The position numbers and the translations under genes were made by a program. A stretch of DNA of 32,000 nucleotides from Gemmatales bacterium (lineage in GTDB: Bacteria; Planctomycetota; Planctomycetia; Gemmatales; Gemmataceae): assembly GCA_038227745.1 (NCBI GenBank), contig JBBRPS010000015.1, forward strand, positions 501-32,500, read 5' to 3'. Of this stretch, positions 10,822 through 32,000 are shown in pieces; the first letter of the stretch is position 1, and every line of letters starts with the position of its first letter. The notes beneath the pieces were generated by a model, which saw only the letters and a list, made by a program, of their open reading frames with translations, did not search any database and was not told where the DNA came from.

Positions 10822-11721
10822 TCAGCGCACCTTCTGTGCCTTCGCGACGGCCGGCACCGGCGACAGGGTGCCGTTCTTCTCGGCCTCGCCGTTGACGGCC
10901 TCGGGCCGGACGCGCACCTCCGGACTGCCGAGCCAATACATGCCACCCACGAAGAAGGCGCCGCCGACGATGTTCCCCAGCGTCGTCACGCCCAGGTTGT
11001 ACCAATACAGGTTGAGGGTCACGTCGGGGCCGTGGTTCGGCGCCAGCAGGCCCAGCATCAGGCCGCACATGTTCGCGATGCTGTGCTCGTAGCCGCTGGT
11101 GATGAACGTGAACATGCACCAGAAGATCAGCAGGATGCGCGCCGACTCGCTCTTGACGCGCGCCGCCATCCACACGCCCAGGCACACGATCCAGTTCGCC
11201 AGCACCGCCCGCCAGAACAACTCCTCCACCCCCGGCGTCGTCTTGGCCTTGAAGACGGCGACGACGAACGAGTTGATCGACGCGAACGCCCTGTCGTCCA
11301 GCAGGCCGGCGCGAAACACGATGAACGCGAGCAGCACGCTCCCCGCCAGGTTGCCGAGCCACGTCCACACCCAGTTGCTCGCCAGGTCCTTGACGGTCGC
11401 CTTGCGCTGCAAGACGCCGACCGTCAGCACCAGGTTGCTGCCGGTGAACAGTTCCGAGCCGGCGAAGATCACGAGCGTCAGCGCGCCGCCGAAGCACACG
11501 CCCATAAGCAGGCGGCGGAACTGCACCGACTCGCCGGCCAGCGAGCCGCCGATGGTGAAGATCAGCACGATGGAGGCGCCGACGTACATGCCGGCCAGCA
11601 TCGAGCGAACGAAGTGGCCCAGCAACGAGCGCCGCTGCGCCTCCAGCTTGGCGGCGGCCTGGTCGCCCAGGGCTACGAGGGTCTCGGCGTACATGAAAGG
11701 ATTCTCCGATCTGTGGCTCAC
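10822..11721 (-). CDS. nirC: Formate/nitrite transporter family channel, probably a nitrite channel
   Basis: Six hydrophobic segments. FNT signatures FAGSELFTGSN and SGYEHSIANM. Lies 42 nt downstream of the nitrite reductase gene. Confidence 0.88.
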   Translation of the reverse strand: MSHRSENPFMYAETLVALGDQAAAKLEAQRRSLLGHFVRSMLAGMYVGASIVLIFTIGGSLAGESVQFRRLLMGVCFGGALTLVIFAGSELFTGSNLVLTVGVLQRKATVKDLASNWVWTWLGNLAGSVLLAFIVFRAGLLDDRAFASINSFVVAVFKAKTTPGVEELFWRAVLANWIVCLGVWMAARVKSESARILLIFWCMFTFITSGYEHSIANMCGLMLGLLAPNHGPDVTLNLYWYNLGVTTLGNIVGGAFFVGGMYWLGSPEVRVRPEAVNGEAEKNGTLSPVPAVAKAQKVR

Positions 11722-11763
11722 GCAAGCCTACCCGGTACACGGGTGGGCTTTGGAGTGGGGGGT

Positions 11764-14763
11764 TCAACCGCGGGGCAGGTAATTGATCAGCGGCTCCAGC
11801 GCGTCAGCGAGCTTGTCGCACGGCACGTCGTACATCAGGTCCGTCGCGACGACCGGGTTCGGCCCCGTCTGGCCCTTCACACAAACGTGGGCCGCGTCCA
11901 CGACCTCGCCGTTGACGCGCGAGCGACAGCCTTGCAGGCCGATCGTCGAGACCTGGTGCATGCCACAGCCCGCCGCACAGCCCGACCAGTGAATCGTCAG
12001 CGGCAGCAGCTTCCGCCCCGCGGTCCGCCGCTCCAGCTCGCGCGCCACCTGCAGCGCGTAGCCCTTCGTTTCGATCAGCGCCAGGCCGCAGTAATCGCTG
12101 CCCGTGCAGGACACCAGGCCGCGCAGGATCGGCGACGGGTCGTACGGCAGCTCCTGCAGCAGCGGCTCCTCCGTCAGCGCACCGAGGCGGTGCTCCGGTA
12201 CGTTGCACAGCACGACGTTCTGCCCGACCGTCACGCGCACGTCGCCGTTGCCGTAGCGCTCGGCGAGGTCCGCCACGCCGCGCAGCTGCGCCGTCGTGAT
12301 CCGCCCGACCGGCACCAGCAGGCCGACGTGGTACAGTGCCGGCCCCTCGTCGCTCGCCCCCTGCCGCTTCTGCGGGTGGATGCCGAGGTGATCGACGTGG
12401 TGCTTCTTGCGCATGTCCGTGCCGGCGTTCAGCAACGGCCGGCCCCAGCGCCGCTGCAGCTCCGAGCGGAACCACGCCACGCCCCGGTCCTCGATCACGA
12501 ACGCCAGCCGGGCGCGGACGCGCGTCGTCCGGGAGCCGGTCTCGTTGAAGATGCGCGTGATCTCCGCACACAGCTTCGCCGCGTCCTCGGGCCGGACGAA
12601 CACGTCGAGCGGCGCCGCCGGCCGGTAGCCGCCCGAGCCCTGCTTACCGCCGACCAGCACGTTGAAGCCGTTCACCTGCGCCCCGTCCAGCTCGCGGTAC
12701 GCCGGCACCAGGCCGATGTCCTGCGTCTCGGGGTGGCAGCAGTTCTCCAGGCAGCCGGTGATCGTGACGTTGAACTTCCGCGGCAGGTTCGTGAACTCCT
12801 TGTTGCCGAGGATGATCTCGTTGAACTCGCGGATCACCGGCGCGGCGTCGAGCAGCTCGTGCGGGCTGAGGCCGGACACCGGGCAGCCGCACACGCCACG
12901 GATGTTGTCCATGCCGGTCTGCTTGCTGTGCAGCCCGACCTCCTCCAAACGCCGCCAGATGTCCGGCACGTCGCCCAGCGTGAACCAGCGCATCTGGAGC
13001 TGCTGCCGTGTCGTCAGGTCGCAGAAGCCCTTGCCGTACTCGTCGGACAGGTCGGCGATCACCCGGAGCTGGCGGGCGTTCGTCCTGCCGCCTTCCAGGC
13101 GCAGCCGCAGCATGAAGTTGCCGGGCGTCGGCTTGCGGAAGAACAGGCCGTACCACTTGGCCCGGTTCTTGTCGTCCTCGCTCATCTCCGCCCAGTTGTT
13201 CGTCGCGGCCAGGCGCACGATGTCCGGCATGCAGTCGAGGCCGTCCTTCGCCTTCTTCATCTGCTCGACCTTGGTCAGCTCCTGCTTCTTCGCCGAGGCC
13301 GGCGCGTAGGCGTCGAGGAGCCGGCCCAGCAGCGGCTGGCAGGTGCCGCAGCCCGTCCCCGCCCGCGTGCAATCGCCGAGCTTGCCGACCGAGCAGTTGC
13401 CCGCCGCGATGGCGGCGACGATGCGCCCCTTGGAGACCGTGTTGCAGTTGCAGATCTGCGTGTCGTCGGGCAACGCCGTCAGCCCGGCGTCGTCGCCCTG
13501 CGACAGCAGCGCGTCGCGGGCGTTGTCGCCGGCGAGCAGGTCGGTGGCGGGGTCGGACAGCGGCTGCCCGTCCTTGAAGAGGCGCGTGAGCTTGCCCGTC
13601 GGGTCCGCCGCGCCGAGCAGGATGGCGCCGACCAGCCGGCCGTCGCGCAGCACGAGCTTCTTGTAGACGCCCGCGGCGGGGTCGGTGTGGGAAAGCACCT
13701 CGCAGTCGGGACCGGGGGCCGTCACCTCGCCCATTGAGATCAGGTCCACGCCCATGACCTTGAGCGTCGTGGCGAGGCGCGAGCCGGCGTAGGAGGCGTT
13801 GGCGTTGGCCTCGGTGAGCACGTCGGCCAGGACGCGGGCCTGCTCGTAGATCGGATCGACCAGGCCGTACAGCTTGCCGCGGTGCTGGGCGCACTCGCCG
13901 ACCGCGAAGACGCTGGGGTCGGTGGTGCGGAGCTGGTCGTCCACGACGATGGCGCGCTCGACGGCGAGGCCCGCCGCCTGGGCGACCTCGACGTTCGGGC
14001 GGATGCCGCAGCTGATGACGACCATGTCCGTGTCGAGCGTGCTGCCGTCCTTGAAGCGCAGGCCCGTGACCGTGCCGTCGCCGCCGAGCAACTCCGTGGT
14101 TTGCGTGTTCAGCAGGACGCGGACGCCCATGTCTTCCAGCTTGGTCCGGAGCAGGGCGGCGCCGGCGGGGTCGAGTTGCTGCACCATCAGGTGCGGCGCG
14201 ACCTCGACGACGGTCACCTCCAGGCCGTGGCTGAGCAGGCCGCGCGCCGCCTCCAGGCCGAGCAGACCGCCGCCGAGCACGACGACCCGGTCGCACTCCT
14301 GGGCGTAGGCGCCGATGGCGGCGCAGTCCTCGAGGGTGCGGAAGACGAAGACGCCACGCTGGCGCGTCCCCTCCATCGGCGGGACGAACGGCCGCGAGCC
14401 GGTCGCCAGGACGAGGTAGTCGTACGGCTCCTCGACCTTGCCGCCGGCGCCGACGACGACGCGGCGCTCGCGGTCGAGGGTGTCGGCCTTGACGCCGTTG
14501 TGTACGAAGACGCTGCGCTGCTCGTACCACTCCAGAGGGTTGAGCCAGAGTTGCTGTGGGTCCTGGAAACCGCCGAGGACGCTCGACAGGAGGATGCGGT
14601 TGTAGGTGCCGTGCGGCTCGGCGCCGAACATGCGGATGTGGAAGCGCTCGGGCTGGCGGGCGAGGACTTCCTCGACGACCTTGGCGCCGACCATGCCGGT
14701 GCCGACGACGACGAGCGTCGGCCGGTGTACAGCTCGAATCATGGGGAGAGGCTCCGAAGGCAC
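11764..14763 (-). CDS. nirB: NAD(P)H-dependent assimilatory nitrite reductase, NirB-type flavoprotein fused to a two-half NirA-type siroheme/4Fe-4S core
   Basis: VVVGTGMVGAKV and VVVLGGGLLGLEAA Rossmann motifs. BFD-like 2Fe-2S (CNCNTVSKG...CTRAGTGCGTC). Two nitrite/sulfite-reductase halves with SCTGSDYCGLA and WSGCAAGCG cysteines. An alternative start at ATG 14742 (MIRAVHRPTLVVV) has a GGAG 9 nt upstream. Confidence 0.92.
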   Translation of the reverse strand: MPSEPLPMIRAVHRPTLVVVGTGMVGAKVVEEVLARQPERFHIRMFGAEPHGTYNRILLSSVLGGFQDPQQLWLNPLEWYEQRSVFVHNGVKADTLDRERRVVVGAGGKVEEPYDYLVLATGSRPFVPPMEGTRQRGVFVFRTLEDCAAIGAYAQECDRVVVLGGGLLGLEAARGLLSHGLEVTVVEVAPHLMVQQLDPAGAALLRTKLEDMGVRVLLNTQTTELLGGDGTVTGLRFKDGSTLDTDMVVISCGIRPNVEVAQAAGLAVERAIVVDDQLRTTDPSVFAVGECAQHRGKLYGLVDPIYEQARVLADVLTEANANASYAGSRLATTLKVMGVDLISMGEVTAPGPDCEVLSHTDPAAGVYKKLVLRDGRLVGAILLGAADPTGKLTRLFKDGQPLSDPATDLLAGDNARDALLSQGDDAGLTALPDDTQICNCNTVSKGRIVAAIAAGNCSVGKLGDCTRAGTGCGTCQPLLGRLLDAYAPASAKKQELTKVEQMKKAKDGLDCMPDIVRLAATNNWAEMSEDDKNRAKWYGLFFRKPTPGNFMLRLRLEGGRTNARQLRVIADLSDEYGKGFCDLTTRQQLQMRWFTLGDVPDIWRRLEEVGLHSKQTGMDNIRGVCGCPVSGLSPHELLDAAPVIREFNEIILGNKEFTNLPRKFNVTITGCLENCCHPETQDIGLVPAYRELDGAQVNGFNVLVGGKQGSGGYRPAAPLDVFVRPEDAAKLCAEITRIFNETGSRTTRVRARLAFVIEDRGVAWFRSELQRRWGRPLLNAGTDMRKKHHVDHLGIHPQKRQGASDEGPALYHVGLLVPVGRITTAQLRGVADLAERYGNGDVRVTVGQNVVLCNVPEHRLGALTEEPLLQELPYDPSPILRGLVSCTGSDYCGLALIETKGYALQVARELERRTAGRKLLPLTIHWSGCAAGCGMHQVSTIGLQGCRSRVNGEVVDAAHVCVKGQTGPNPVVATDLMYDVPCDKLADALEPLINYLPRG

Positions 14764-15620
14764 AGGACTCAGTTCCGGTGGACGGCCGGCCGATAGCGCG
14801 CAGAGCGAACGGCGTCACCGGCTGTCGCTGGCCGGAGAACGAGTGCGCGATCGGGATGGAATTCGGTCAAGGTCCCGCCCAGCCCGAGGAGAGGAGGAAC
14901 AGGCTGGAGAACACAAGGGGCGGGATTGGGAGAGGTCCGCCTTACGATACCATGTCAGGCCCTCATCGAGGAACGCACAACGCCGGTCGCCCCCTTTGAT
15001 GCAATCGCGGTGCCAAGGCGCTGACCGCGGCTGCGCGGAGTCCGGGCCATCGCTGCAACTTCCTTGGTTGCCACGGGGTTCCAGCGAGGGGGGTGGTGCG
15101 CGATACGCGGCGCGGGGCTGGGGGGCATGCACAAAGTCCAGGCAAAGACTGCGTGCGGAATGAACGTCACTCTCGGGCCGGAGCAGGTCGGAACGCTCCT
15201 GCAGCCAGCCGTTCCGGAATAACCGGCAGCGACGGAGCTTCTTACAATCCCGCGGTGCTTTCTACAACGGTGGACAGGAAGACGCCACGGGGGTCAGGAA
15301 ATGCGGTCGAGGCGTAAGCGTTGTATGAGTCATGGCTTGAGCGAATCTTGTCGGTCGCGTCGCGCCTCCGGCACGCTCCTTGCGTTAGTAAGCCATCGAC
15401 TCCGATCAACACCCGGGAAGAGGACACCAGAGGTCTTCCACACGCGGCCGTTCCCCCCACGGCCGTCCGCGGTTTCCCCCGACCGCGGAACGAGCCGGGC
15501 CGTCGCCGGAGGTTCCCCGACCTCCCGACCCTCGACGGTCCGGCGCCTGGCGTGTGCGCGACCCGGTATCCCTTCCTCCCATCTATCTCCCGCCGCAGAC
15601 CCTACCCCCGATCCCCCTTT

Positions 15621-16160: not shown

Positions 16161-20579
<4,419 letters not shown>

Positions 20580-20744: not shown

Positions 20745-20843
20745 AGGATAAACGAGACCATGCGGCCACCCGCTGAAGGAACGCTTTTCCCCTTCGCCGC
20801 GTCCAAGAAGAAGTCATTGGTCGCACACGAGAGAGGGCCTGCC

Positions 20844-22286
20844 ATGCGTTCGGTTCGCGCTGTCCTTGCCCTGGCGGCCCTGGCCGCGAGCGTGTCGTCG
20901 TCCGCGGCGGGCAAGGGCGGGGACGCGACCGCCGAGCGCCTGGTCGGGCAACTCGGCAGCAAGAAGTACGCCGAGCGTGAGACGGCGGCCCGCAAACTCG
21001 ACACGCTCGGCGCGCGGGCGCTCCCCGCACTGCGCGACGCCGTCCGCAACGCCGACCTCGAGGTCCGCCGCCGGGCCCAGCAGATCCTCGCGCGCCTCGA
21101 GAGGCGCCTCGACGCCGTCCGCTTCCTGGCCCCGACCCGCCTCTGCCTTACCTGGAAGGGCACGCCCCTCCCCCAGGCAGTCCGTGAACTGGCCGCCCGG
21201 ACCGGGCTCGACGTCCGCCTCGACGGCGACGACGCCGGACTGGCGAGCCGCAAGCTCACCCTCGACACCGGGGACGCAACGCTGTGGGAGGCCCTCGACC
21301 GCTTCTGCCGGGCGGCCGGCCTGTCGGAGGCCCCGCCCGGCGACAGCGTGAACCCGACCGCGGACCAGGCGGCCGACTCCGCCCTCGTTCTCACCGGCGC
21401 CCGCACCCGCCGCCCGCCGACGCACCTGGCCGGCTCCGTCCGCCTGCGGGCGCTGCCGGCCGGGGCCGTCATTCCCAGCGCCCGCCGTCCCCATCCCGGC
21501 CCAGACCTGATCTTCCTCCTGGAAGCGCGGCCCGAACCGAAGGTGGCGTGGCAAGGCATCAGTCGAGTGCGCGTCCTCCGCGCCGTGGACGAGCACGGAC
21601 AGTCCCTGGTGCAGCCCGAGCCGTTCCTGGCCGTCGATCCCATTTCGGCGGTCGATGAGGAACGGCCGCTGCGCTGGGACGCGATGTGGGGCACGCCGGT
21701 AGCGGCGCTGCCGGGGCGGACGGTGCCGGTGCGCGTGGCGGCCGGCAAGAAGGCTGCGGCACGCCTGAAGGAGGTCGAGGGCGTCCTCACCGCACGGATC
21801 CTGGCGGCCGGGCCGCTCGTCACGGTGGACAACGTGCTGAAGGCCGAGGGGCGGACGGTGATAGGCCCAGGAGGCGAGATGATGAAATTGACGCGGGCCC
21901 GCCGCGACGGCCCAACGCTGACGCTGCACGTCGAGGCGCGGCCGTCGGCGTCGAGCGGGGCCGCACCCTTCCACGTGGTCCGGAGCCCCAAGGGGGTGCT
22001 GTTGATGCAAGGCGGCGTGCAGACCGCGAAATCCAGCCTCGACCTGCTGGACGCCGCCGGCACCCCCCTGAAGCCGGTGAGCAGGGAGCGGCGCCTGAAT
22101 CCCGACCCGCGCGGCGGACTGGTACTCGAATTCACCCTCGTTTATACGCTACGCCCCGGTCAGCCGCCGCCGAGCCACCTGGTGTGGACCGGGCCGCGCG
22201 TCCTGCCCGTGGACATCCCGTTCCTGCTGCGCGACGTCCCGGTGATGGTTCAGAAGCCGCGTGCCTCCATCGCCCCAGTCCCGTGA
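20844..22286 (+). CDS. Secreted hypothetical protein with an N-terminal HEAT-like module
   Basis: Start placed at ATG 20844 (MRSVRAVLALAALAASVSSSAAG signal peptide). KKYAERETAARKLDTLGARALPALRDAVRNADLEVRRRAQQIL is typical of planctomycete exported proteins. Confidence 0.7.
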   Translation: MRSVRAVLALAALAASVSSSAAGKGGDATAERLVGQLGSKKYAERETAARKLDTLGARALPALRDAVRNADLEVRRRAQQILARLERRLDAVRFLAPTRLCLTWKGTPLPQAVRELAARTGLDVRLDGDDAGLASRKLTLDTGDATLWEALDRFCRAAGLSEAPPGDSVNPTADQAADSALVLTGARTRRPPTHLAGSVRLRALPAGAVIPSARRPHPGPDLIFLLEARPEPKVAWQGISRVRVLRAVDEHGQSLVQPEPFLAVDPISAVDEERPLRWDAMWGTPVAALPGRTVPVRVAAGKKAAARLKEVEGVLTARILAAGPLVTVDNVLKAEGRTVIGPGGEMMKLTRARRDGPTLTLHVEARPSASSGAAPFHVVRSPKGVLLMQGGVQTAKSSLDLLDAAGTPLKPVSRERRLNPDPRGGLVLEFTLVYTLRPGQPPPSHLVWTGPRVLPVDIPFLLRDVPVMVQKPRASIAPVP

Positions 22287-24483: not shown

Positions 24484-26964
24484 TCAGGCTTTTCCCGCCT
24501 TCCGGCGGCGCAACCCGATCCCGAACTGCCGCAGCAGCCCCGGGAGCTGGCGGACGAGGTTATAGTCGTACCTCTTCTCCTCCGCCGACAACTCCTGCCA
24601 CGCCTTGAGATTCGGATGACGCCGCTTGCCCTCGGCGCGCGGCCCCGGCGTCCAACCGTCCAGCAACCGCTCCACGTTCCAGCGGCCGTGCTCCATCTCC
24701 GCCAGCGTCCCCTCCTCTTCTGGCGTGAACGTAAAGGGCTCGCCCGCCCGCAGGTCGCCCGCGGGGAACGCCTCGATCCCCAGGTAGCGCAGCTTCACTG
24801 CGATGTGATCGACCAGCTGCAGACTCGACTCCTTGTACAGCGGCGGCAGTTCCTCCCACTCCGCCAGCGAAATGTTTTCGGCCTTCTTCGCACGCCGGTG
24901 CTCGTCGTGCAGACAGCGCGCCAGTTCCTCCCGCCGTTGGGCGACATCCGCGAAAGGCGGGAATGGCGCCTCGACGAAGTTCCACAGCGTCATCGCGTCC
25001 ACCGGCAGCCGCACCAGCCCCTTGATCGACCACCACTCCGCGTCCGCCGCCAGCTTGTTCGCCTCGCGGCCGCTGTCGTCTACCACACCCACCCGGGCCC
25101 CCAACGCCAGCGCCAGCCGGTACTCGAACGCCGCGATCCGCCCGCCGTTGATCCCGAGCAACTTCACGTCGGTCGCCCGGACGCCCGCCGCGAGCAGGTC
25201 GATCCAGTTCTGCAGCGGCTGCAGTGGCGTGAAGTCCCTGGCACCGGCCGTGTAGCACTCGTAGGCGGGGTGCGGTGCGACGCCCGCGGGCAGCGCCTCG
25301 GGGAGGTAGGCCACCGCACGGATCCGGCCACCGGACTCCGCCGCCAGCTCGCCGACCAGGCCGCTGATCCCCGCCGAGGTGCCGCCGGAGAGGATCGTGC
25401 CCGTGAACGTGGCGAACGTCGACCGCAGCAGCGTCCCGTACGCCTGCATCCGGGCCTCGACGCTCTCGTCACAGCCGCCCGCCACGATCACGACCCGCCC
25501 CCCGAAGTCCGGACCGTCCTGCGAACGGAGGCCTGCCAGGTGTGCCGGCGCCCCGGCGTCGGCCCGGACGGCCTTCCCCAGCAGGAGCAGCCGTCGGACC
25601 CAGTCCGCCCCCTCCGGCAGGCCGCTCGCCCCGTCCAGCTGATCCACGACCGCCAGGGCGGCGTCGAACATGAACTCGGCCCCGGAGCGCACCGCCCGCG
25701 CGTAGGCCGCCAGACTCTCGTACGGCTGGCCCCGCAGCAGGTGCAGTTCGCCGAGCTGGAAGTACGCCCAGGGCAGGTTCACCTCCGCCTCGATCTGGTC
25801 GCGGCAACGGCGGATGGCTGCGTCCAGGGTCGGCTGCAGCAGAGCCAGGAACGAGGCGCTCTTCGTCTGGCCGATCCGGCCGCGCACGCACCCCACCAGC
25901 ACACGCGGGTTGGCAGGGTCCTTCTCGAAAGCCCTCTCGTACCACTGCCGGGCCGCGCTCGCGCCCCCCTCCCCCGCGCCGGCCAGTGCGTCCGCCAGGG
26001 CCATGAGCCCCTCGACGTCCTCGGGGTCGGCGCGGACGGCATCCTCGAGGAAAGCCCTTCCCTCCCGGTGGCCCGGACCGCCCGGGTCTCCCTTGTGCTG
26101 CTCGCACAGGGCGATCCCGGCGCACAGGCGGAGGCGGTGGGGCGGTCGCCGCGCGAAATCCTTCACGAGCGCCGTCACCCGGTCCCACTTCCCCAGGCGC
26201 AGCGCCAGGCGGGCGATCTGGTGGGCCAGGCCCGCGTTGCCGGGATCCTTGCTAAACACCAACTCCAGCACTTCCAGCTCGTGCTCCGCCTCGGCCGAAC
26301 TCTTGTCCCCGGCGACGCCGGTCTGGTAGGCGGTGACGGCGTCCGCGATCCGCGTACAGGCCTCGTCGACCGCCTCCAGCAGGGCGGCCATCTGGGCGTA
26401 CTCGCGCTCCAACCGGGCCGGCACCAGGAAGCCGCTCTTGTACAGGCGGTCGTGGCCGACGTCCGCCCAGCAGTGCTCGGCAATGGTGCGCACCTGGACC
26501 TCCGCCCGCAGGTCCCGGCGCAGGGCCCCGGGCTCGACCGGGACGTCCTCGGTGGGGAAGATCCCGTTCCGGAACTGCACGACGTGGTGGACCGAGCGAT
26601 ACCAGAATTCCCGCGCGCGCAGGTGCTTGGCCGGGTCGTGCTCGGCCACCTCCTCGACCCGGAAGTGCTTCTTGATCCAGGCGCTGAAGGCGTGCGCCTC
26701 GGCCCGCGTGTGAACGATGACCCGGGCGCCGCACAGGTCGATCATCTGCACCAGCGGCTCGCGGTAGCCCTTGCGCAGGATCTTCTCCGCGAAGCTCACG
26801 ATGCTCTTCGTCCGGCTCTGCACCAGGGCGTGGGGGGCGACCACCAGGGCGGCGTGTTTCAAAATCCGCTCGAGGCTTTGGGTGTACGCCTCGCACTCGG
26901 GGCGGATGGCCTCGAAGAGGCAGACCTGCCCCTCAAACCATTGCCGATCAACCGTTCCGCTCAT
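24484..26964 (-). CDS. Multidomain RelA/SpoT-like nucleotide pyrophosphokinase - TPR - SLOG (TRPM/LSDAT-type) - RyR-domain protein
   Basis: Start placed at ATG 26964 (MSGTVDRQWF) behind GGGAGAG. RelA/SpoT blocks: SRTKSIVSFAEKILRK, DLCGARVIV, FWYRSVHHVV, AEVQVRTIAEHCWADVGHDRLYK. Helical repeats at about aa 220-488. SLOG-like VVIVAGG...GTILSGGTSAGISGLVGE...LLGINGGRIAAFEY...VVDDSGREANKLA at about aa 489-670. Two RyR-like units: LHDEHRR...WEELPPLYKESSLQLVDHI and EMEHGRWNVERLLDGWTPGP...KRRHPNLKAWQELSAEEKRYDYNLV. Confidence 0.85.
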   Translation of the reverse strand: MSGTVDRQWFEGQVCLFEAIRPECEAYTQSLERILKHAALVVAPHALVQSRTKSIVSFAEKILRKGYREPLVQMIDLCGARVIVHTRAEAHAFSAWIKKHFRVEEVAEHDPAKHLRAREFWYRSVHHVVQFRNGIFPTEDVPVEPGALRRDLRAEVQVRTIAEHCWADVGHDRLYKSGFLVPARLEREYAQMAALLEAVDEACTRIADAVTAYQTGVAGDKSSAEAEHELEVLELVFSKDPGNAGLAHQIARLALRLGKWDRVTALVKDFARRPPHRLRLCAGIALCEQHKGDPGGPGHREGRAFLEDAVRADPEDVEGLMALADALAGAGEGGASAARQWYERAFEKDPANPRVLVGCVRGRIGQTKSASFLALLQPTLDAAIRRCRDQIEAEVNLPWAYFQLGELHLLRGQPYESLAAYARAVRSGAEFMFDAALAVVDQLDGASGLPEGADWVRRLLLLGKAVRADAGAPAHLAGLRSQDGPDFGGRVVIVAGGCDESVEARMQAYGTLLRSTFATFTGTILSGGTSAGISGLVGELAAESGGRIRAVAYLPEALPAGVAPHPAYECYTAGARDFTPLQPLQNWIDLLAAGVRATDVKLLGINGGRIAAFEYRLALALGARVGVVDDSGREANKLAADAEWWSIKGLVRLPVDAMTLWNFVEAPFPPFADVAQRREELARCLHDEHRRAKKAENISLAEWEELPPLYKESSLQLVDHIAVKLRYLGIEAFPAGDLRAGEPFTFTPEEEGTLAEMEHGRWNVERLLDGWTPGPRAEGKRRHPNLKAWQELSAEEKRYDYNLVRQLPGLLRQFGIGLRRRKAGKA

Positions 26965-26978
26965 GACACTCTCCCGAG

Positions 26979-27043
26979 GCTGCAGGTCAGGATTTTCAAC
27001 CTGACGGAGTTGACTTGTTGGGCTGGGAATCCTGACCTGCAGC
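26979..27043 (-). promoter_or_regulatory. Perfect 16-bp inverted repeat abutting the RBS of the RelA/SpoT-SLOG gene
   Basis: GCTGCAGGTCAGGATT (26979-26994) and AATCCTGACCTGCAGC (27028-27043). A competing 6-bp pairing exists between GTCAGG (26986-26991) and CCTGAC (27000-27005). On the mRNA strand the stem ends 3 nt before GGGAGAG-N7-ATG, and no U-tract follows. Confidence 0.5.
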
Positions 27044-27062: not shown

Positions 27063-28310
27063 TCAGAGCAACCCGCCGTACCGAATACTGGACAGGACGT
27101 GCATCAGGACGAGGGCCAGCAGGGCCCAGGCCGCGGGGGCATGCACCAGCAGCCAGCCCCGCGTCAGTCGCCGGAACCAGTATTCCAGGTCCATCTGCCG
27201 CCGCTCCTCGACCCAGAGCCACAGCTGGTCCACCCGGCCGACTTCCCCGGGGGGCGCCAGCTCGCGCGCACGCAGGTAGTGGTTGCGCGGCACCGGCTCC
27301 AGCGCCTCGGCGCTCAACAGCCAGCCCCAGGAAGGGAACCCGGAGCGCAGGTAGCCGCTCACCTCTTCGGCGAAGAAGCGCTTGACGGTCTCGGGCGGCC
27401 GGTCACTCCGGCGGACCAGGTCAGGGCAGGCCGCCTCCAGGAAGAGGCGGTTGCGCCGCTCCGTCTGTGCCACGGAGAGGTCCTTGGCCCGCAGCGCCAG
27501 TAATTCTCGCCCCTCCGCCGTGAGCGGGAACCCGGCGGGGTCTTGCCCCTGCCAGAAGTTCTGCGACGTGAGCAGCTCATTCAGTGCGGCCAGGATCAGG
27601 CGCCGGTCATCCTCCGACCCCGGGGCGGCGTCGGCCACACGCCGGATCGCCGTCCGCGGGTTGGCGCCGAGCGGCTTCGCGTTCCAGACCACCCGGTGGA
27701 GCGGGCCGCCCGACTGGAGGATGGCCTTGCAGAATTCGCCCCAGGCGAGGACGTCCGAGTCGAGCACCATGGAGTAATTCTCCATCAACTCGGTGGAGCG
27801 GGCGATCAGGGCCAGCCGCTCGAACGCCAGCCGCTCGCCGGCCAGCTCGCGGTCGAGCAGCAGGGCCAGCAGGCGGAAGACAAGGCGCTGCAGCGCCATC
27901 CCGACCATGCCCGACAACAGGACCAGGGCGAACACGATGACCACCCACAGCGTCAGGCCGCCGCGGAAGAGGTGGCCGCGACCATGGAGGATCACCAGGC
28001 CGAAGGCGAGGTAGGCGGCGCCGATGTGCCAGCGCAGCCAGCGCGTCATGTTGCCGCGGGGCCGCTGCAGCGACAGGCGCCGCCAGGGGTACAGGTACGG
28101 GATCAACAGGGCGACCAGGGCGGGGTAGCCGAGGAAGCGGCATGCCCGGCGGAACGCCGGCGCCTCGACGTCCACGAAAGGGAGGCAGGCGAGGGTGAGC
28201 CAGGCGGCGGCGGGCATCACCGCCCAGAGGAAGAGGGCGTAGGGGTGCGGGGTGCCGGGGTTGGCGCGAGGGGGGGACATTGCTCGGCTCCAGGGGTGCG
28301 GCGCCTTCAT
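27063..28310 (-). CDS. Five-TM membrane protein with paired histidines in TM helices (possible b-type cytochrome-like anchor) and a large soluble insert
   Basis: Start placed at ATG 28310, which overlaps the upstream stop as ATGA. TM segments YALFLWAVMPAAAWLTLACLPFV, FLGYPALVALLIPYLYPW, WHIGAAYLAFGLVILHG, LTLWVVIVFALVLLSGMVGMAL and C-terminal WLLVHAPAAWALLALVLMHVL. The ORF-track extension to 28790 is an Arg-rich overlap with the upstream gene. Confidence 0.78.
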   Translation of the reverse strand: MKAPHPWSRAMSPPRANPGTPHPYALFLWAVMPAAAWLTLACLPFVDVEAPAFRRACRFLGYPALVALLIPYLYPWRRLSLQRPRGNMTRWLRWHIGAAYLAFGLVILHGRGHLFRGGLTLWVVIVFALVLLSGMVGMALQRLVFRLLALLLDRELAGERLAFERLALIARSTELMENYSMVLDSDVLAWGEFCKAILQSGGPLHRVVWNAKPLGANPRTAIRRVADAAPGSEDDRRLILAALNELLTSQNFWQGQDPAGFPLTAEGRELLALRAKDLSVAQTERRNRLFLEAACPDLVRRSDRPPETVKRFFAEEVSGYLRSGFPSWGWLLSAEALEPVPRNHYLRARELAPPGEVGRVDQLWLWVEERRQMDLEYWFRRLTRGWLLVHAPAAWALLALVLMHVLSSIRYGGLL

Positions 28311-30616
28311 GGACGGTCCCCGAGGGGGAGGGACCAGTTCTTGATGCCCGGGAACAGGTCGCGCGGCGCGCCGCGCGCGGCGGCGCCGTAGGGGCAGCTG
28401 GCGACGCAGGGCGGCTCCGCGCGGTCCGTCAGGCAGAGGTCGCACTTGGTCGCGACCAGCGCGAGCCCGGTCCGCTTTTTGAAGCTGTTGGTGGGGGCGG
28501 CGTCGCGGGCGGTGGGCGGCGGCTCCATGTGGATCACGTCGAAGGGGCAGGCCGGCACGCACTTCTCGCAGCCGATGCAGCGGTGCATGTGGATCTGCAC
28601 GATGCGCTTCTCCACGAAGCTGATGGCCCCCACGGGACAGGCGTCCTGGCAGGGGGCGTCGCTGCAGTGGACGCAGGCGGCGGCCACCGTCCACTTGCCG
28701 AAGTGCAGGTCGGGGTTGGAACGCTGGAACCGGGGCATGCCGTCGTGCGCCTCGGCACAGGCCTGCACGCACTGGTCGCAGCGCGTACACAGGTCCATGT
28801 CGATCCGCAGCAAGTTCGTGGCCGCCAGCAGCTTGGACGCGACCTCTTGCGGCGGGTCGCGAGGCGGCAGCAGTTCCAGGCTGTCCAGGCGCCGGTCGCG
28901 GGTGCGGTTGCGGTCCTGTTCGTTCTGCAATTTGCGGGCGACGAAGGGGTGTGCCCGCAGCAGCACCGTCAGGGCGGCACGGTTCAGGCGGACCAGGTGG
29001 GTCGGCGTGACGGCACGCACCGTCGCGGTATGGGCCGCCCCCTCGGCGGCACTGGAGACACCCAGGAAGCCGTGGCGGTCGTACTGGTTGACGAGGATCT
29101 CACCGCCGGCCGCCCGGCGCGTCGCGCGCACGGTGCCGCTGATCAGGAAGCCGAGGTGCTCCGACGGCTCGCCTTCCTGGGAAATCACCTGGTCCTTGCC
29201 GTGGTGCAGCAACTCGACGCCCCCGAAGACCGCGCGGAGTTGCCCCACCAGTTCCCGCAGTTCGGCGACGGTCAGCGGCGGCGGCGGCCCGGCGGGCCGC
29301 AGGCAGTCCGGCAGCGCCGCCGCGAGGAGCAGGTGGTTCAGGCGGATCGTCTCGTTCACCGTCAGCGCCGCGGGGCCGCGCTGCCGCAAGCCGCGCACCT
29401 CCTCGGTCGGCCCCCCCTCCGGCCAGGTGTCCCCGGAGGAAAGGTCGGCGTCCTTCAACAACTCGTTGAGTGCGCCCAGGAGGCGGTGGCGCAGCCCCCG
29501 GTCCTCGGCGGCCGCAGTGGCGGCCATGAGCCTGCGCAGGCCCGGGTCGAGCCGGCGCCGCACGAGGCCCGCGACGCCGTGCCGCGCTCCCTTCAGCCGC
29601 CCGAGGAAAGCGGGCCAATCCGTGACGTCGCTCTCGTACAGAGTGTCGCGGAACAGGCGGTTGTCGGTGAGGAGGGTCGGCAGCACGAGGTCGAGGAAGT
29701 CGTCATCGAACCTCCGCGCCACTTCCGGTGCGTTGGCGGCGATTTCGGCGAGCACCTCACGGCGGATCAGCAGGACCTCGCAGGGCGGTGTCGCGGCGTC
29801 GGGGTCCGCCTGGAGGGTGACGGCGCGCGGCGTGTTCCACAGCGCGCCGGGGACGCCCTGAAGTCGATCGAGGACGGGGCAGAGCAGGCCGGCGTCATCC
29901 ACGGAGGGCACGGCGCGCAGTTCCTGCCCGCGGGCTTCCGCCGAGGCGGGACCCAGTTCGAGAGGGTTCGCCAGCCAGCGCTCGTGGGGGCGGCGGCCGA
30001 GCCAGCGGCAGAAGGTCCGTGCGACCCACCCCTGGAAGTGCTGCCACGGCGAGCGCCGGGCGCCCGGACGGGTGACGTCGCCGACCCAGTCCTCCAGGGC
30101 GCCGAGCATGCCTCGCACGCGCCGCGCGAGGAGGCGAATGACGCGGGTCGGCCAGCGGGGCGGGGGCGCGTCCGGCCGCAGTCGGTCGGTGTGCTCGAGG
30201 GCCCAGCCCTCCAGGCGGTGCAGGGGCAGGCGCGGGCGATTCCAGCACTCGGCGAGGTCGTCGGTCCGGCCGGCCGCGACGGGCGGGCCTTCCGTGGGGC
30301 CGTGTCGGCGGTAGACGCGCATGCGGCCCTGGAGCAGCAGGGCGGCGTAGCCGCTGTAGCCCCCTTCGGGCATGATGACTTCGCCGGGGGCGAACCGGAT
30401 GAGGAAGAAATAGGTCTCCAGGTCGTATGGGGCCAGCTTCTTGCGCAGCGTGGCCAGCAGGGCAGGCGCTGGGGTGATCTTGCAGGCCGTGTCGGTAGGA
30501 TGGCAGAGGTGCTCCAGGACGGCTTCGGCTGACAGGGGCAGGGTTTCCACGGGCGTGACTTTCTCGGTTGGCGTCTCTTGGGTGGCGCGGCACAGGGGCC
30601 CGCCGCAGTCTAGCAT
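28307..30616 (-). CDS. Protein with two cyclic-nucleotide-binding-like domains and a C-terminal multi-cluster 4Fe-4S ferredoxin module
   Basis: CAP-effector-like stretches FFLIRFAPGEVIMPEGGYSGYAALLLQGRMRVY and LLHHGKDQVISQEGEPSEHLGFLISGTVRA...GFLGVSSAAEGAAHTATVRAVTPTHLVRL. Cys motifs CTRCDQCVQAC, CVHCSDAPCQDACP, CIGCEKCVPACP and CDLC...CVASCP. The start is uncertain: ATG 30616 is chosen to avoid a 5-prime overlap with the divergent gene, but in-frame ATGs exist up to 30835. Confidence 0.82.
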   Translation of the reverse strand: MLDCGGPLCRATQETPTEKVTPVETLPLSAEAVLEHLCHPTDTACKITPAPALLATLRKKLAPYDLETYFFLIRFAPGEVIMPEGGYSGYAALLLQGRMRVYRRHGPTEGPPVAAGRTDDLAECWNRPRLPLHRLEGWALEHTDRLRPDAPPPRWPTRVIRLLARRVRGMLGALEDWVGDVTRPGARRSPWQHFQGWVARTFCRWLGRRPHERWLANPLELGPASAEARGQELRAVPSVDDAGLLCPVLDRLQGVPGALWNTPRAVTLQADPDAATPPCEVLLIRREVLAEIAANAPEVARRFDDDFLDLVLPTLLTDNRLFRDTLYESDVTDWPAFLGRLKGARHGVAGLVRRRLDPGLRRLMAATAAAEDRGLRHRLLGALNELLKDADLSSGDTWPEGGPTEEVRGLRQRGPAALTVNETIRLNHLLLAAALPDCLRPAGPPPPLTVAELRELVGQLRAVFGGVELLHHGKDQVISQEGEPSEHLGFLISGTVRATRRAAGGEILVNQYDRHGFLGVSSAAEGAAHTATVRAVTPTHLVRLNRAALTVLLRAHPFVARKLQNEQDRNRTRDRRLDSLELLPPRDPPQEVASKLLAATNLLRIDMDLCTRCDQCVQACAEAHDGMPRFQRSNPDLHFGKWTVAAACVHCSDAPCQDACPVGAISFVEKRIVQIHMHRCIGCEKCVPACPFDVIHMEPPPTARDAAPTNSFKKRTGLALVATKCDLCLTDRAEPPCVASCPYGAAARGAPRDLFPGIKNWSLPLGDRP

Positions 30617-30788: not shown

Positions 30789-32000
30789 ATGGCCACCAGC
30801 ATCGAACGCCTGTTAGACCGGCTGAAGACGCACAAGGCCGACGTCCTGGATCTCCTTCAGGCCCACCGGACCCGGGCGGACGAACCGCACTGGCGGCAAG
30901 ACCCCCGCCTCTACCGGGCCTTCGCCAAGAAGCTCATCAGCGCCGGCCACCCGACCCGGGCGGTCGAGCTACTCCGCGAGGCCCTGGAGTACCACCGGGC
31001 CGACCTCGACCTGAAGTACCTGCTCGCGCTGGCGTTCGCGCGCGGCGGCAACATCGTCCAGGCCAAACCCTATCTCGATGAGCTCCTGAAGGTGCCGGAC
31101 CTCGAGCCCCGCCTCCAGGTCGAGGTGTTCAGCCTCGAGGGCCGCTCCCTGAAGGACCGCTACGCGCGCACCGCCGACCCCGCCGTCCGGACCGAGCTCG
31201 CCAGGAAGTCGGCCGCGTGCTACCTCCGCGCCGCCCGGGTGTCGGACGACCTGGTCCCGCTGATCAACGCCGCGACCATGTCCCTGCTCGGCGACGACGC
31301 CGAGCAGGCCCGCGCCCTGGCGAGCAAGATCGTCCGGCGGGCGAAAGCCGAGCTCAAGGAGCCGGGCAAGGACCAGGACTACTGGCTCCTGGCGACGCTG
31401 GCCGAGGCCTCCCTGATCCTGGGGGACCTGAAACGGGTGAAGGACTGGATACTGCGGGCAGTCCAGGTGGCCGGCGACGACGTCGGCGACGTCGCCTCGA
31501 CGCGCCGCAACCTCCTCCTCCTCAAGGACAAGATCGAGGTCGGCGAGACGATCTGGGGGCTGTTCAACATCGGCACCGTTGTGGCCTTCTCCGGCCACAT
31601 GCTCGACCACCCGCGGCGGACGACCCGGGCGGCGCGTGCTGCCCGCTTCCCGCCTGACGCGGCCCTGGAGCGGCGCGTGGGCGAGGCGATCCGCGAGCGG
31701 CTCGCGAATCTCAACGCCACGGTCGGGTACTGCTCGGCCGCCTGCGGCTCGGACATCCTGTTCGCCGAGTGCATGCTGGAGCGGAAGAACGCCGAACTCC
31801 ACGTCATCCTGCCCTTCCACAAAGAGGACTTCTATCACACCAGCGTCGATTTCGGCCTCACGGAGATGGCTTCCTGGCGGGCGCGCTGCGACGCCGTCCT
31901 GGCGCGCGCCAAGCAGGTCCACTACGCCACGGCCGAGCATTACTTCGAGACTTTAGCAAGGTTAGTGCAGTCGCCCGACCTTCCGTTGCGCATAAGATGA
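30789..32000 (+). CDS. TPR / DUF4071-like helical-repeat protein with a C-terminal SLOG-like Rossmannoid domain, apparently truncated at the window edge
   Basis: MATSIERLLDRL start. Helical repeats with PLINAATMSLL. Then VVAFSGHMLDHP...RFPPDAALERRVGEAIRERL...VGYCSAACGSDILFAECMLERKNAELHVILPF, resembling YpsA/MoCo-carrier-type SLOG modules. The last 16 codons switch to rare codons (ACT TTA GCA AGG TTA ... ATA AGA) before a TGA at 31998-32000. Confidence 0.75.
   Translation: MATSIERLLDRLKTHKADVLDLLQAHRTRADEPHWRQDPRLYRAFAKKLISAGHPTRAVELLREALEYHRADLDLKYLLALAFARGGNIVQAKPYLDELLKVPDLEPRLQVEVFSLEGRSLKDRYARTADPAVRTELARKSAACYLRAARVSDDLVPLINAATMSLLGDDAEQARALASKIVRRAKAELKEPGKDQDYWLLATLAEASLILGDLKRVKDWILRAVQVAGDDVGDVASTRRNLLLLKDKIEVGETIWGLFNIGTVVAFSGHMLDHPRRTTRAARAARFPPDAALERRVGEAIRERLANLNATVGYCSAACGSDILFAECMLERKNAELHVILPFHKEDFYHTSVDFGLTEMASWRARCDAVLARAKQVHYATAEHYFETLARLVQSPDLPLRIR

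Follow-up and report, generated by a model that had tools for sequence, protein, structure and literature searches.

Domain architecture at the locus

We describe a gene on the minus strand of a 32,000-nt stretch of DNA from a Gemmatales bacterium (GenBank assembly GCA_038227745.1, contig JBBRPS010000015.1, positions 501 to 32,500; hereafter the window), whose product joins a small alarmone synthetase (SAS) domain to a tetratricopeptide repeat (TPR) region, a SLOG domain of the TRPM type and a pair of ryanodine receptor (RyR) repeats. The source contig exceeds the window by only about 0.6 kb. The SAS gene runs from an ATG at 26964 to a stop codon at 24484-24486 through 826 uninterrupted codons, and the GC content at third codon positions (GC3), 0.85 in a sequence of 70% GC, picks out this open reading frame (ORF) as the coding frame. 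A preliminary description, made from the sequence letters, had placed all four parts in one polypeptide. The single ORF of 826 amino acids (aa) bears this out, and the peptides quoted there can be located in it: SRTKSIVSFAEKILRK at aa 50-65, DLCGARVIV at 76-84, FWYRSVHHVV at 120-129 and AEVQVRT..YK at 154-176 in the synthetase, and VVIVAGG at 491-497, ILSGGTSAGISGLVGE at 524-539, LLGINGGRIAAFEY at 602-615 and EMEHGRWNVERLLDGW at 756-771 in the sensor domains. The gene, its domains and its ribosome-binding site (RBS) are as follows.

24484..26964, minus strand: complete ORF of the SAS-TPR-SLOG-RyR protein, 826 aa plus stop (translation, identical public product P0001, AlphaFold2 model)
26320..26964, minus strand: RelA/SpoT synthetase (small alarmone synthetase) domain, aa 1-215 (Pfam, PDB profile, Foldseek, invariant residues)
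25534..26298, minus strand: TPR region, aa 223-477, 13 helices forming about 6.5 TPR-like repeats (Pfam, model, PDB)
24961..25503, minus strand: TRPM-type SLOG (LSDAT_prok) domain, aa 488-668 (Pfam, domain-only model, Foldseek, conservation)
24760..24951, minus strand: first RyR repeat, degenerate and without the beta-hairpin, aa 672-735 (hhalign, homologous segments, conservation)
24505..24723, minus strand: canonical second RyR repeat, aa 748-820 (E758, H759, R761, W762, R766, G770, W771, P784, W789)
26969..26975, minus strand: Shine-Dalgarno-like GGGAGAG, 5 nt before the ATG (sequence)

An identical 826-aa product is already in public data, as a gene call (P0001) on an 8.2-kb Logan contig, and full-length homologs measure about 820-870 aa. 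The open frame of the SAS gene continues upstream as far as 27402; we rejected a longer start (GTG at 27222 or further upstream) and take the ATG at 26964 as the start because GGGAGAG lies 5 nt before it, because the public call begins there and because the homologs are of matching length. The AlphaFold2 model of the full-length protein has a pLDDT of 87.3 and a pTM of 0.77.

The synthetase domain

The N-terminal domain scores 55.9 bits against Pfam RelA_SpoT (PF04607; cut-off 27). A profile of 43 homologs matches RelP and RelQ structures in the PDB with E values of 1e-19 to 1e-12, and the window sequence searched singly against the PDB matched RelP and RelQ and no other RelA/SpoT homolog (RSH). 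Foldseek with the full-length model returned RelP (6ewz) and RelQ (5dec/5ded) at the top, at target-normalised TM-scores of 0.65-0.80, the identity in these structural alignments being only about 20-24%. The RelA/SpoT assignment first made from the letters is thus recovered by Pfam, PDB profile and Foldseek searches. The catalytic residues had also been said to look intact, and this is strengthened by the homolog alignment, where 15 residues (R51, K53, S57, K61, K65, D76, R81, Y122, H126, E155, Q157, T160, H171, Y175 and K176) are invariant in all 43 sequences. Since the mutual identity of these sequences is only 36-48%, we conclude that the active site is under purifying selection.

The catalytic motifs of the window protein align with those of RelP and RelQ, and common to both are the SYNTH fold and the blocks R-x-K...S...K, D-x-x-G-x-R, G-Y-R-S-x-H and E-x-Q-x-R-T...H-x-W-A...Y-K. 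By profile, residues and SYNTH fold, the window protein belongs to the RSH superfamily. Its N-terminal domain, with a RelP/RelQ fold and apparently all the residues needed for pyrophosphate transfer from ATP, is predicted to be active. It is not a RelQ ortholog, because the RelQ/YjbM equivalog model (NCBIfam NF053588) scores 37.1 bits against a cut-off of 320. RelP and RelQ are moreover single-domain homotetramers of ~210 aa, whereas the window protein adds ~610 residues of TPR, SLOG and RyR.

CapRel, FaRel2 and PhRel2 attach pyrophosphate to tRNA at its 3'-CCA end, and the window protein might likewise be a translation inhibitor of the toxic SAS (toxSAS) type that modifies this tRNA end, with TPR-SLOG-RyR as an autoinhibitory sensor that would free the toxin once the cell is infected. 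The PADLOC candidate-defence model PDC-S33 does match the N-terminal domain (52 bits), and Foldseek finds CapRel (9erv) at an E value of 1e-4, a much weaker match than those to RelP and RelQ. With CapRelSJ46 the window protein shares a design principle, an RSH synthetase fused to a C-terminal regulatory or sensor region; both tRNA-targeting toxSAS and fused-sensor designs are established (PMC11559606, PMC9712102). However, the C-terminus of CapRelSJ46 is a pseudo-zinc-finger domain serving as sensor and antitoxin, to which TPR-SLOG-RyR is unrelated, and the closest proteins by sequence and by structure are the nucleotide-making RelP and RelQ, not CapRel or FaRel2. We consider a tRNA-modifying toxin unlikely, and take up below the neighbouring genes that bear on it.

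The TPR region and the SLOG domain

The helical repeats had been read as TPRs, and TPR_17 and TPR_19 indeed score above their Pfam cut-offs in the window protein, while the helix list of the AlphaFold2 model has thirteen helices at aa 223-477. The family profile also matched designed and consensus TPR proteins in the PDB.

The SLOG domain was less easily recognised. Foldseek with the whole protein was dominated by SAS and TPR/OGT-like matches and did not reveal it, and Pfam LSDAT_prok scored 19.4 bits against the full-length protein, under the cut-off of 25.4. Scanned alone, the domain scored 25.6 bits, which is marginal for the window copy; the match is solid family-wide, all 20 homologous SLOG segments matching LSDAT_prok and no other family (best E value 1e-9). 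The SLOG call needed Pfam together with a structure search, since the segment profile found nothing significant in the PDB (TRPM2, 6co7, at E 1.4). A SLOG-only AlphaFold model (pLDDT 91, pTM 0.90) gave as its first Foldseek matches the N-terminal domains of TRPM2, TRPM4, TRPM3 and TRPM8 (E values 3e-6 to 1e-4), with TRPM5 and TRPM7 also present. The TRPM2 matches include ADP-ribose-bound entries and the local refinement of human MHR1/2, and those of TRPM4 include ATP-bound states. Small SLOG proteins were matched as well, namely the LOG-like TM1055 (1rcu) and a Moco carrier protein; 1rcu and 2iz5 align at TM-scores of 0.70-0.76. In its model the isolated domain takes a Rossmann-like SLOG fold whose closest counterpart is TRPM MHR1/2, and the TRPM-type SLOG assignment of the preliminary description is upheld by the LSDAT_prok matches of the domain and family scans and by the leading place of TRPM in Foldseek.

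Conservation centres on the Gly-rich loops G496-G497, G527-G528-T529 and N606-G607-G608, which are invariant or nearly so. Across the homologs G496, G522, W587, D589 and G604 are invariant, and G497, G527, G528, T529, G607, G608 and E614 are at least 90% conserved. By comparative genomics, Burroughs et al. (2015, NAR) reportedly defined the SLOG/LSDAT families and predicted 'nucleotide-centric' systems of SLOG and SLATT proteins. In one such domain a ligand is described, the SLOG domain of ThsA being activated by isomers of cyclic ADP-ribose (PMC11204291).

The SLOG domain could instead be catalytic, as a LOG-like nucleotide N-glycosidase or phosphoribohydrolase that acts on the substrate or product of the SAS domain, the chain then being a two-enzyme pathway. 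The stretch N-G-G-x-I-A-A-x-E, with its near-invariant E614, resembles the LOG motif PGGxGTxxE, and the LOG-like TM1055 ranks high in the structure search. Most of the leading structures, however, are TRPM N-terminal domains, which are non-catalytic and bind ligands, LSDAT_prok is the sole Pfam family matched, and a second conserved catalytic Arg motif was neither looked for nor found. We think a catalytic SLOG very improbable.

The RyR repeats

The second RyR unit matches Pfam RyR (PF02026) at 35.8 bits against a cut-off of 27.4, and the family profile matches the repeats of RyR1/2/3 in the PDB at E 2e-30. The first unit of the window protein (aa ~672-735) has no Pfam match of its own; among the homologous first units, 12 of 18 match Pfam RyR. 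Compared profile to profile (hhalign), the two units are related with 97.2% probability (E 3.6e-11), and a helix-helix-strand pattern is seen twice in this region of the AlphaFold2 model. The two RyR-like units noted earlier are therefore homologous, with the refinement that they are unequal, only the second reaching Pfam by itself.

H759, R761, W762 and R766 of the second unit are conserved. In the RY12 domain of RyR1, ADP or ATP is bound by stacking on the Trp of an H-E-L-W motif and is held by an Arg four residues later; RY12 has been proposed as a sensor of the ATP:ADP ratio, and prokaryotic RY12 domains as nucleotide sensors (PMC13642953). Residues H759-G-R-W762...R766 of the window protein align with the W882/R886 region of RyR1, a mapping that is a motif alignment and not a solved complex. 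The family resembles RY12, and the bacterial 'putative ryanodine receptor' structures 3NRT and 6UAG, in having a repeat pair with the motif H-x-x-W...R...G-W...P, and differs in that its first repeat is truncated and bears Tyr where RY12 has Trp; at this position (689) the window has His. We know of no prokaryotic RyR domain with a demonstrated ligand. Judged by conservation, the putative ligand-contacting residues of both SLOG and RyR are kept across phyla.

Size, spread and variants of the family

The preliminary description called for a survey of the phyletic spread of this architecture, and the survey makes clear that it is no one-off fusion. A scan of one genome per GTDB species found relatives in both Bacteria and Archaea, in at least 554 species, nearly all of them represented by metagenome-assembled genomes (MAGs). 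The best 80 are MAGs throughout and span more than 20 bacterial phyla, and the archaeal carriers among them include Bathyarchaeia, Methanobacterium, Methanoregulaceae, Halobacteriota and Thermoplasmatota. When 1.84 billion cluster representatives were searched exhaustively with a profile, 4,984 matched at E<=1e-30, of which the best 150 all exceed 800 bits and are nearly all full-length. A word-indexed search gave 195 matches at 34-48% identity; the 120 among the matches listed are mostly full-length. The only public labels of members are 'RyR domain-containing protein', 'hypothetical protein' and 'ppGpp synthetase/RelA/SpoT-type nucleotidyltransferase'.

Several variants occur. Some members carry ~155 extra N-terminal residues that form a NUDIX domain (PF00293 in P0091, P0095, P0108, P0110 and P0119), some lack RyR and are about 670-700 aa long, and one is fused to KaiC (P0073). 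Stand-alone SLOG-RyR proteins also exist. In one locus (L085, 5050-7566) two neighbouring genes encode the SAS part and the TPR-SLOG-RyR part separately, and in another (L087, 2522-7542) a TIR_2-TPR protein of 1164 aa lies directly before, and overlaps, a stand-alone SLOG-RyR protein of 513 aa. The latter arrangement indicates that TIR can stand in for SAS before the same sensor module, and the two loci together that the sensor module is portable between generators.

Partner genes in related loci

We called ORFs in 84 related loci and searched them with a hidden Markov model built from small Nudix-box proteins. A NUDIX protein of ~135-170 aa was found in 57, usually immediately upstream of the SAS gene on the same strand and sometimes downstream or fused; it is MutT/NudI/NudG-like (Pfam NUDIX, 85 bits), not of the ADP-ribose pyrophosphatase type. 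In TRPM2, likewise, a SLOG domain of the same subtype (the top Foldseek match) is linked to a Nudix domain, NUDT9-H. TRPM2 differs in being a eukaryotic cation channel with a Nudix of the ADP-ribose pyrophosphatase type; the family's partner is MutT/NudI-like and no channel is part of the chain.

Three further kinds of partner, TrkA_N-RyR, SLATT-like and TIR proteins, each occur in 12-25% of the related loci. A TrkA_N-RyR protein of ~600 aa lies near the SAS gene in at least 21 of the 84 loci, or about 25% (L089, at 698-2494, L005, L012, L023, L029, L037, L051 and about 15 others). It has two predicted transmembrane (TM) segments ahead of its Rossmann domain, and its C-terminal RyR pair closely resembles that of the synthetase, including the same degenerate first unit. 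From this layout, 2TM-TrkA_N (RCK)-RyR proteins beside the SAS gene are candidate nucleotide-gated channels. A SLATT-like protein of ~560 aa, with weak DUF4231/SLATT_1 matches, was found in about 12 loci; SLATT is a predicted nucleotide-responsive 2TM pore effector (PMC7159879). TIR-domain proteins were found in at least 12 loci, several directly downstream of the SAS gene, and STAND-NTPase neighbours recur as well. A ClpB-like double-AAA+ protein (~750 aa), often with a YbjN protein, is present in about 20 loci (for example L002, 10857-13719), mainly in actinobacterial, Chloroflexota and Gemmatimonadota MAGs.

Tiny stand-alone RyR-repeat proteins (~90-150 aa) sit beside a NUDIX or TrkA_N-RyR gene in L088 (8253-8537), L061 (4583-5035) and L042 (5971-6255). 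An apparent further group of ~130-aa ORFs without a Pfam match ('cluster 8') was rejected as an artefact of antisense ORFs inside the TrkA_N-RyR gene, and a neighbouring ABC-transporter cluster and sigma-54 activators were judged incidental.

These partners bear on the tRNA-modifying toxin considered above. The conflict-type neighbours of many relatives (TIR, STAND, SLATT-like) would suit it. Against this, the dominant NUDIX partner is a MutT-like small-molecule enzyme, more in keeping with a soluble nucleotide than with a modified end of tRNA, and the two nucleotide-sensor domains, together with the RyR module common to synthetase and channel-like neighbour, point to a diffusible ligand. The comparison with CapRel runs the same way: CapRel modifies tRNA and senses the capsid protein of a phage, whereas this family has nucleotide-type sensors and a NUDIX partner.

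A proposed ligand-gated synthetase

The reading we favour, and to which we give about even chances, is that ligands gate this small alarmone synthetase, which acts as 'writer' in a self-contained module of nucleotide signalling made up of writer, reader and eraser. The SAS domain would make a 3'-pyrophosphorylated purine nucleotide of the (p)ppGpp or (p)ppApp type. SLOG and RyR would bind nucleotide-type ligands, for which ADP/ATP, an ADP-ribose-like molecule and the SAS product itself are candidates, and would thereby switch the synthetase on or off, through activation by a trigger, feedback by the product, or both; the TPRs may serve assembly or recognition of the trigger. NUDIX would break down the product, setting a threshold and ending the signal in the manner of a type IV antitoxin or 'eraser'. 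The output could be growth arrest, or activation of a membrane effector (the RyR-bearing channel or the SLATT-like protein), under stress or in an anti-invader response. There are precedents for the erasing step: a Nudix that degrades ppGpp is known in Thermus (PMC3153485), and hydrolases that degrade the toxSAS product, the small alarmone hydrolases (SAH), are type IV antitoxins (PMC7229694). That a nucleotide writer and its candidate readers share one chain was already suggested in the preliminary description, and we infer the same, now with the support of the RY12, TRPM, NUDIX and TrkA_N-RyR evidence. Since the family is present in archaea without the classical stringent-response machinery, the signal is probably read inside the module, which favours a self-contained system.

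A more specific version is possible, though we hold it only tentatively: the RSH synthetase would make a dedicated messenger that is read by RyR and SLOG on the synthetase itself and on channel-like or SLATT-like effectors, and erased by NUDIX. The generator-sensor-effector logic would then be that of Thoeris and CBASS, which the SLATT-like and TIR neighbours in relatives also recall. The difference is that the generator of this family is an RSH pyrophosphokinase, not a TIR or a CD-NTase, and that generator and sensors lie on one chain. If this version is true, Bacteria and Archaea would have a nucleotide-signalling or immune system of a new class, from which the modules that sense ligands in animal TRPM and ryanodine-receptor Ca2+ channels would descend.

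What is new is the sensor architecture of the SAS and the conserved set of partners around it, in a very large and uncharacterised family. The preliminary description knew of no characterised protein of this kind, and our full-text literature search agrees: no description of or experiment on SAS-TPR-SLOG-RyR was found in the literature searched, though an earlier in-silico mention may exist. The family would add to alarmone biology a large pan-prokaryotic branch (at least 554 species) in which small-molecule sensor domains, rather than ribosomes or protein antitoxins, control the synthetase. What prokaryotic RyR and TRPM-type SLOG domains bind, a question that dates from their recognition in bacteria, could be approached in this soluble and tractable system, and the answer would bear on the origin of ADP-ribose and adenine-nucleotide sensing in TRPM2 and RyR channels. 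Concrete, testable predictions on eraser and effector follow from the NUDIX partner and from the channel-like neighbour that bears RyR, and the archaeal members bear on whether (p)ppGpp-like signalling exists in archaea.

Neighbourhood of the window copy

The window copy has neighbours of its own, both on the strand of the SAS gene and upstream of it.

27063..28280, minus strand: membrane protein, 405 aa, with three or more strong TM segments, a conserved subclade neighbour
28307..30616, minus strand: cyclic nucleotide (cNMP)-binding and 4Fe-4S dicluster protein (Pfam), 769 aa as called, the ORF being open to 30835

The membrane protein has no Pfam match. Its homologs (~400 aa) have conserved His residues. 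The pair adjoins the SAS gene in the loci of P0003 (46% identity), P0004 (46%) and P0010 (44%), in an orientation different from that of the window; the membrane-protein partner is of the same size in the loci of P0003 and P0010, and the cNMP-binding/4Fe-4S domain pair is present in all three. Homologs of both proteins were verified in L088 (4442-8018; membrane protein E 5e-110, cNMP/4Fe-4S protein E 3.5e-170), where that of the membrane protein adjoins the SAS gene. The placing of the pair beside the SAS gene is thus not accidental, since it is kept in the loci of three of the closest relatives despite rearrangement. In those three loci a NUDIX gene lies 4-5 kb off, beyond the Fe-S gene; the locus of a fourth close relative, P0009, lacks all these neighbours. 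We regard the window as belonging to a subclade with its own conserved partners, and the 'eraser' of the window copy, if any, as encoded elsewhere. The cNMP/4Fe-4S and membrane proteins may be a local input or effector in this subclade, and the cNMP-binding domain could be another nucleotide reader.

Several points weigh against the ligand-gated reading. First, NUDIX, AAA+/YbjN, SLATT-like, TrkA_N-RyR and TIR partners were sought across the 32-kb window and none was found, leaving the scheme of writer, reader and eraser incomplete there; set beside toxSAS modules, NUDIX is adjacent or fused in about 70% of the related loci and absent here. Most of the partners that lend the model its appeal at the level of the family are thus missing beside the window copy. 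Second, housekeeping genes (TsaD, nitrite reductase) are nearby and there is no obvious defence island. Third, the window departs from the family RyR consensus at four positions (Y689H, N714S, Q717L, R801Y). Fourth, the acceptor, be it GTP, ATP or tRNA, cannot be deduced from the SAS motifs, and regulation between the domains is something we infer from their fusion only.

The same context fits best with another explanation, that the protein is a housekeeping sensor of stress, energy or redox state and no conflict system, a regulated SAS making (p)ppGpp for ordinary growth control, with RyR reading the ADP/ATP ratio, SLOG a metabolite, and NUDIX providing turnover. The window neighbourhood is chromosomal and partly housekeeping (TsaD, NirB, a formate/nitrite transporter), the subclade pairs the gene with a membrane protein and a cNMP-binding/4Fe-4S protein of redox type, and the proposed role of RY12 as an ATP:ADP ratio sensor would suit growth control. 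RelP and RelQ, the nearest characterised relatives, are themselves non-toxic housekeeping SAS (PMC7229694). At the level of the family, however, the patchy spread over very distant phyla and archaea suggests horizontal transfer, TIR, STAND-NTPase and SLATT-like genes frequently adjoin the SAS genes of relatives, and TIR swaps with SAS before the same sensor module in L087. Moreover, (p)ppGpp targets are not known in the archaeal hosts. A housekeeping role seems unlikely to us, and the ligand-gated synthetase remains the reading we prefer.

Other features of the window

The 98-nt gap between the stop codon of the upstream gene and the SAS ATG holds one further feature.

26979..27043, strand not assigned: inverted repeat whose 23-nt arms are 87% complementary, with CTGCAGGTCAGGATT as its perfect 15/15 core and a spacer of 19 nt

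It ends just before the Shine-Dalgarno-like sequence and occurs once in the window, where 0.02 matches would be expected by chance; it may act as operator, as T-less terminator or as an RNA or translational hairpin.

Divergent from the Fe-S gene, an ORF at 30789-32000 on the plus strand, cut by the window end, has matches to TPR-S ('sensor' TPR) and MAP3K_TRAF_bd. A TCAD9/TPR-S/MAP3K_TRAF_bd protein lies near the SAS gene in the locus of P0003, and the TPR-S proteins at the two places hint at a further link to a conflict system.

On the other side of the SAS gene, a NirB-type assimilatory nitrite reductase (~1016 aa) followed by a formate/nitrite (FNT) transporter occupies 10822-14814 on the minus strand; because these belong to ordinary chromosomal metabolism, we do not regard the region as a mobile element. 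An ORF of 508 aa at 20760-22286 on the plus strand has only a sub-threshold match, to the second domain of phage baseplate hub gp44-like proteins (25.4 bits against 27). Before it, at 16161-20579 on the plus strand, lies a very large Ser/Thr protein kinase of at least 1472 aa, fused to several WD40 beta-propellers.

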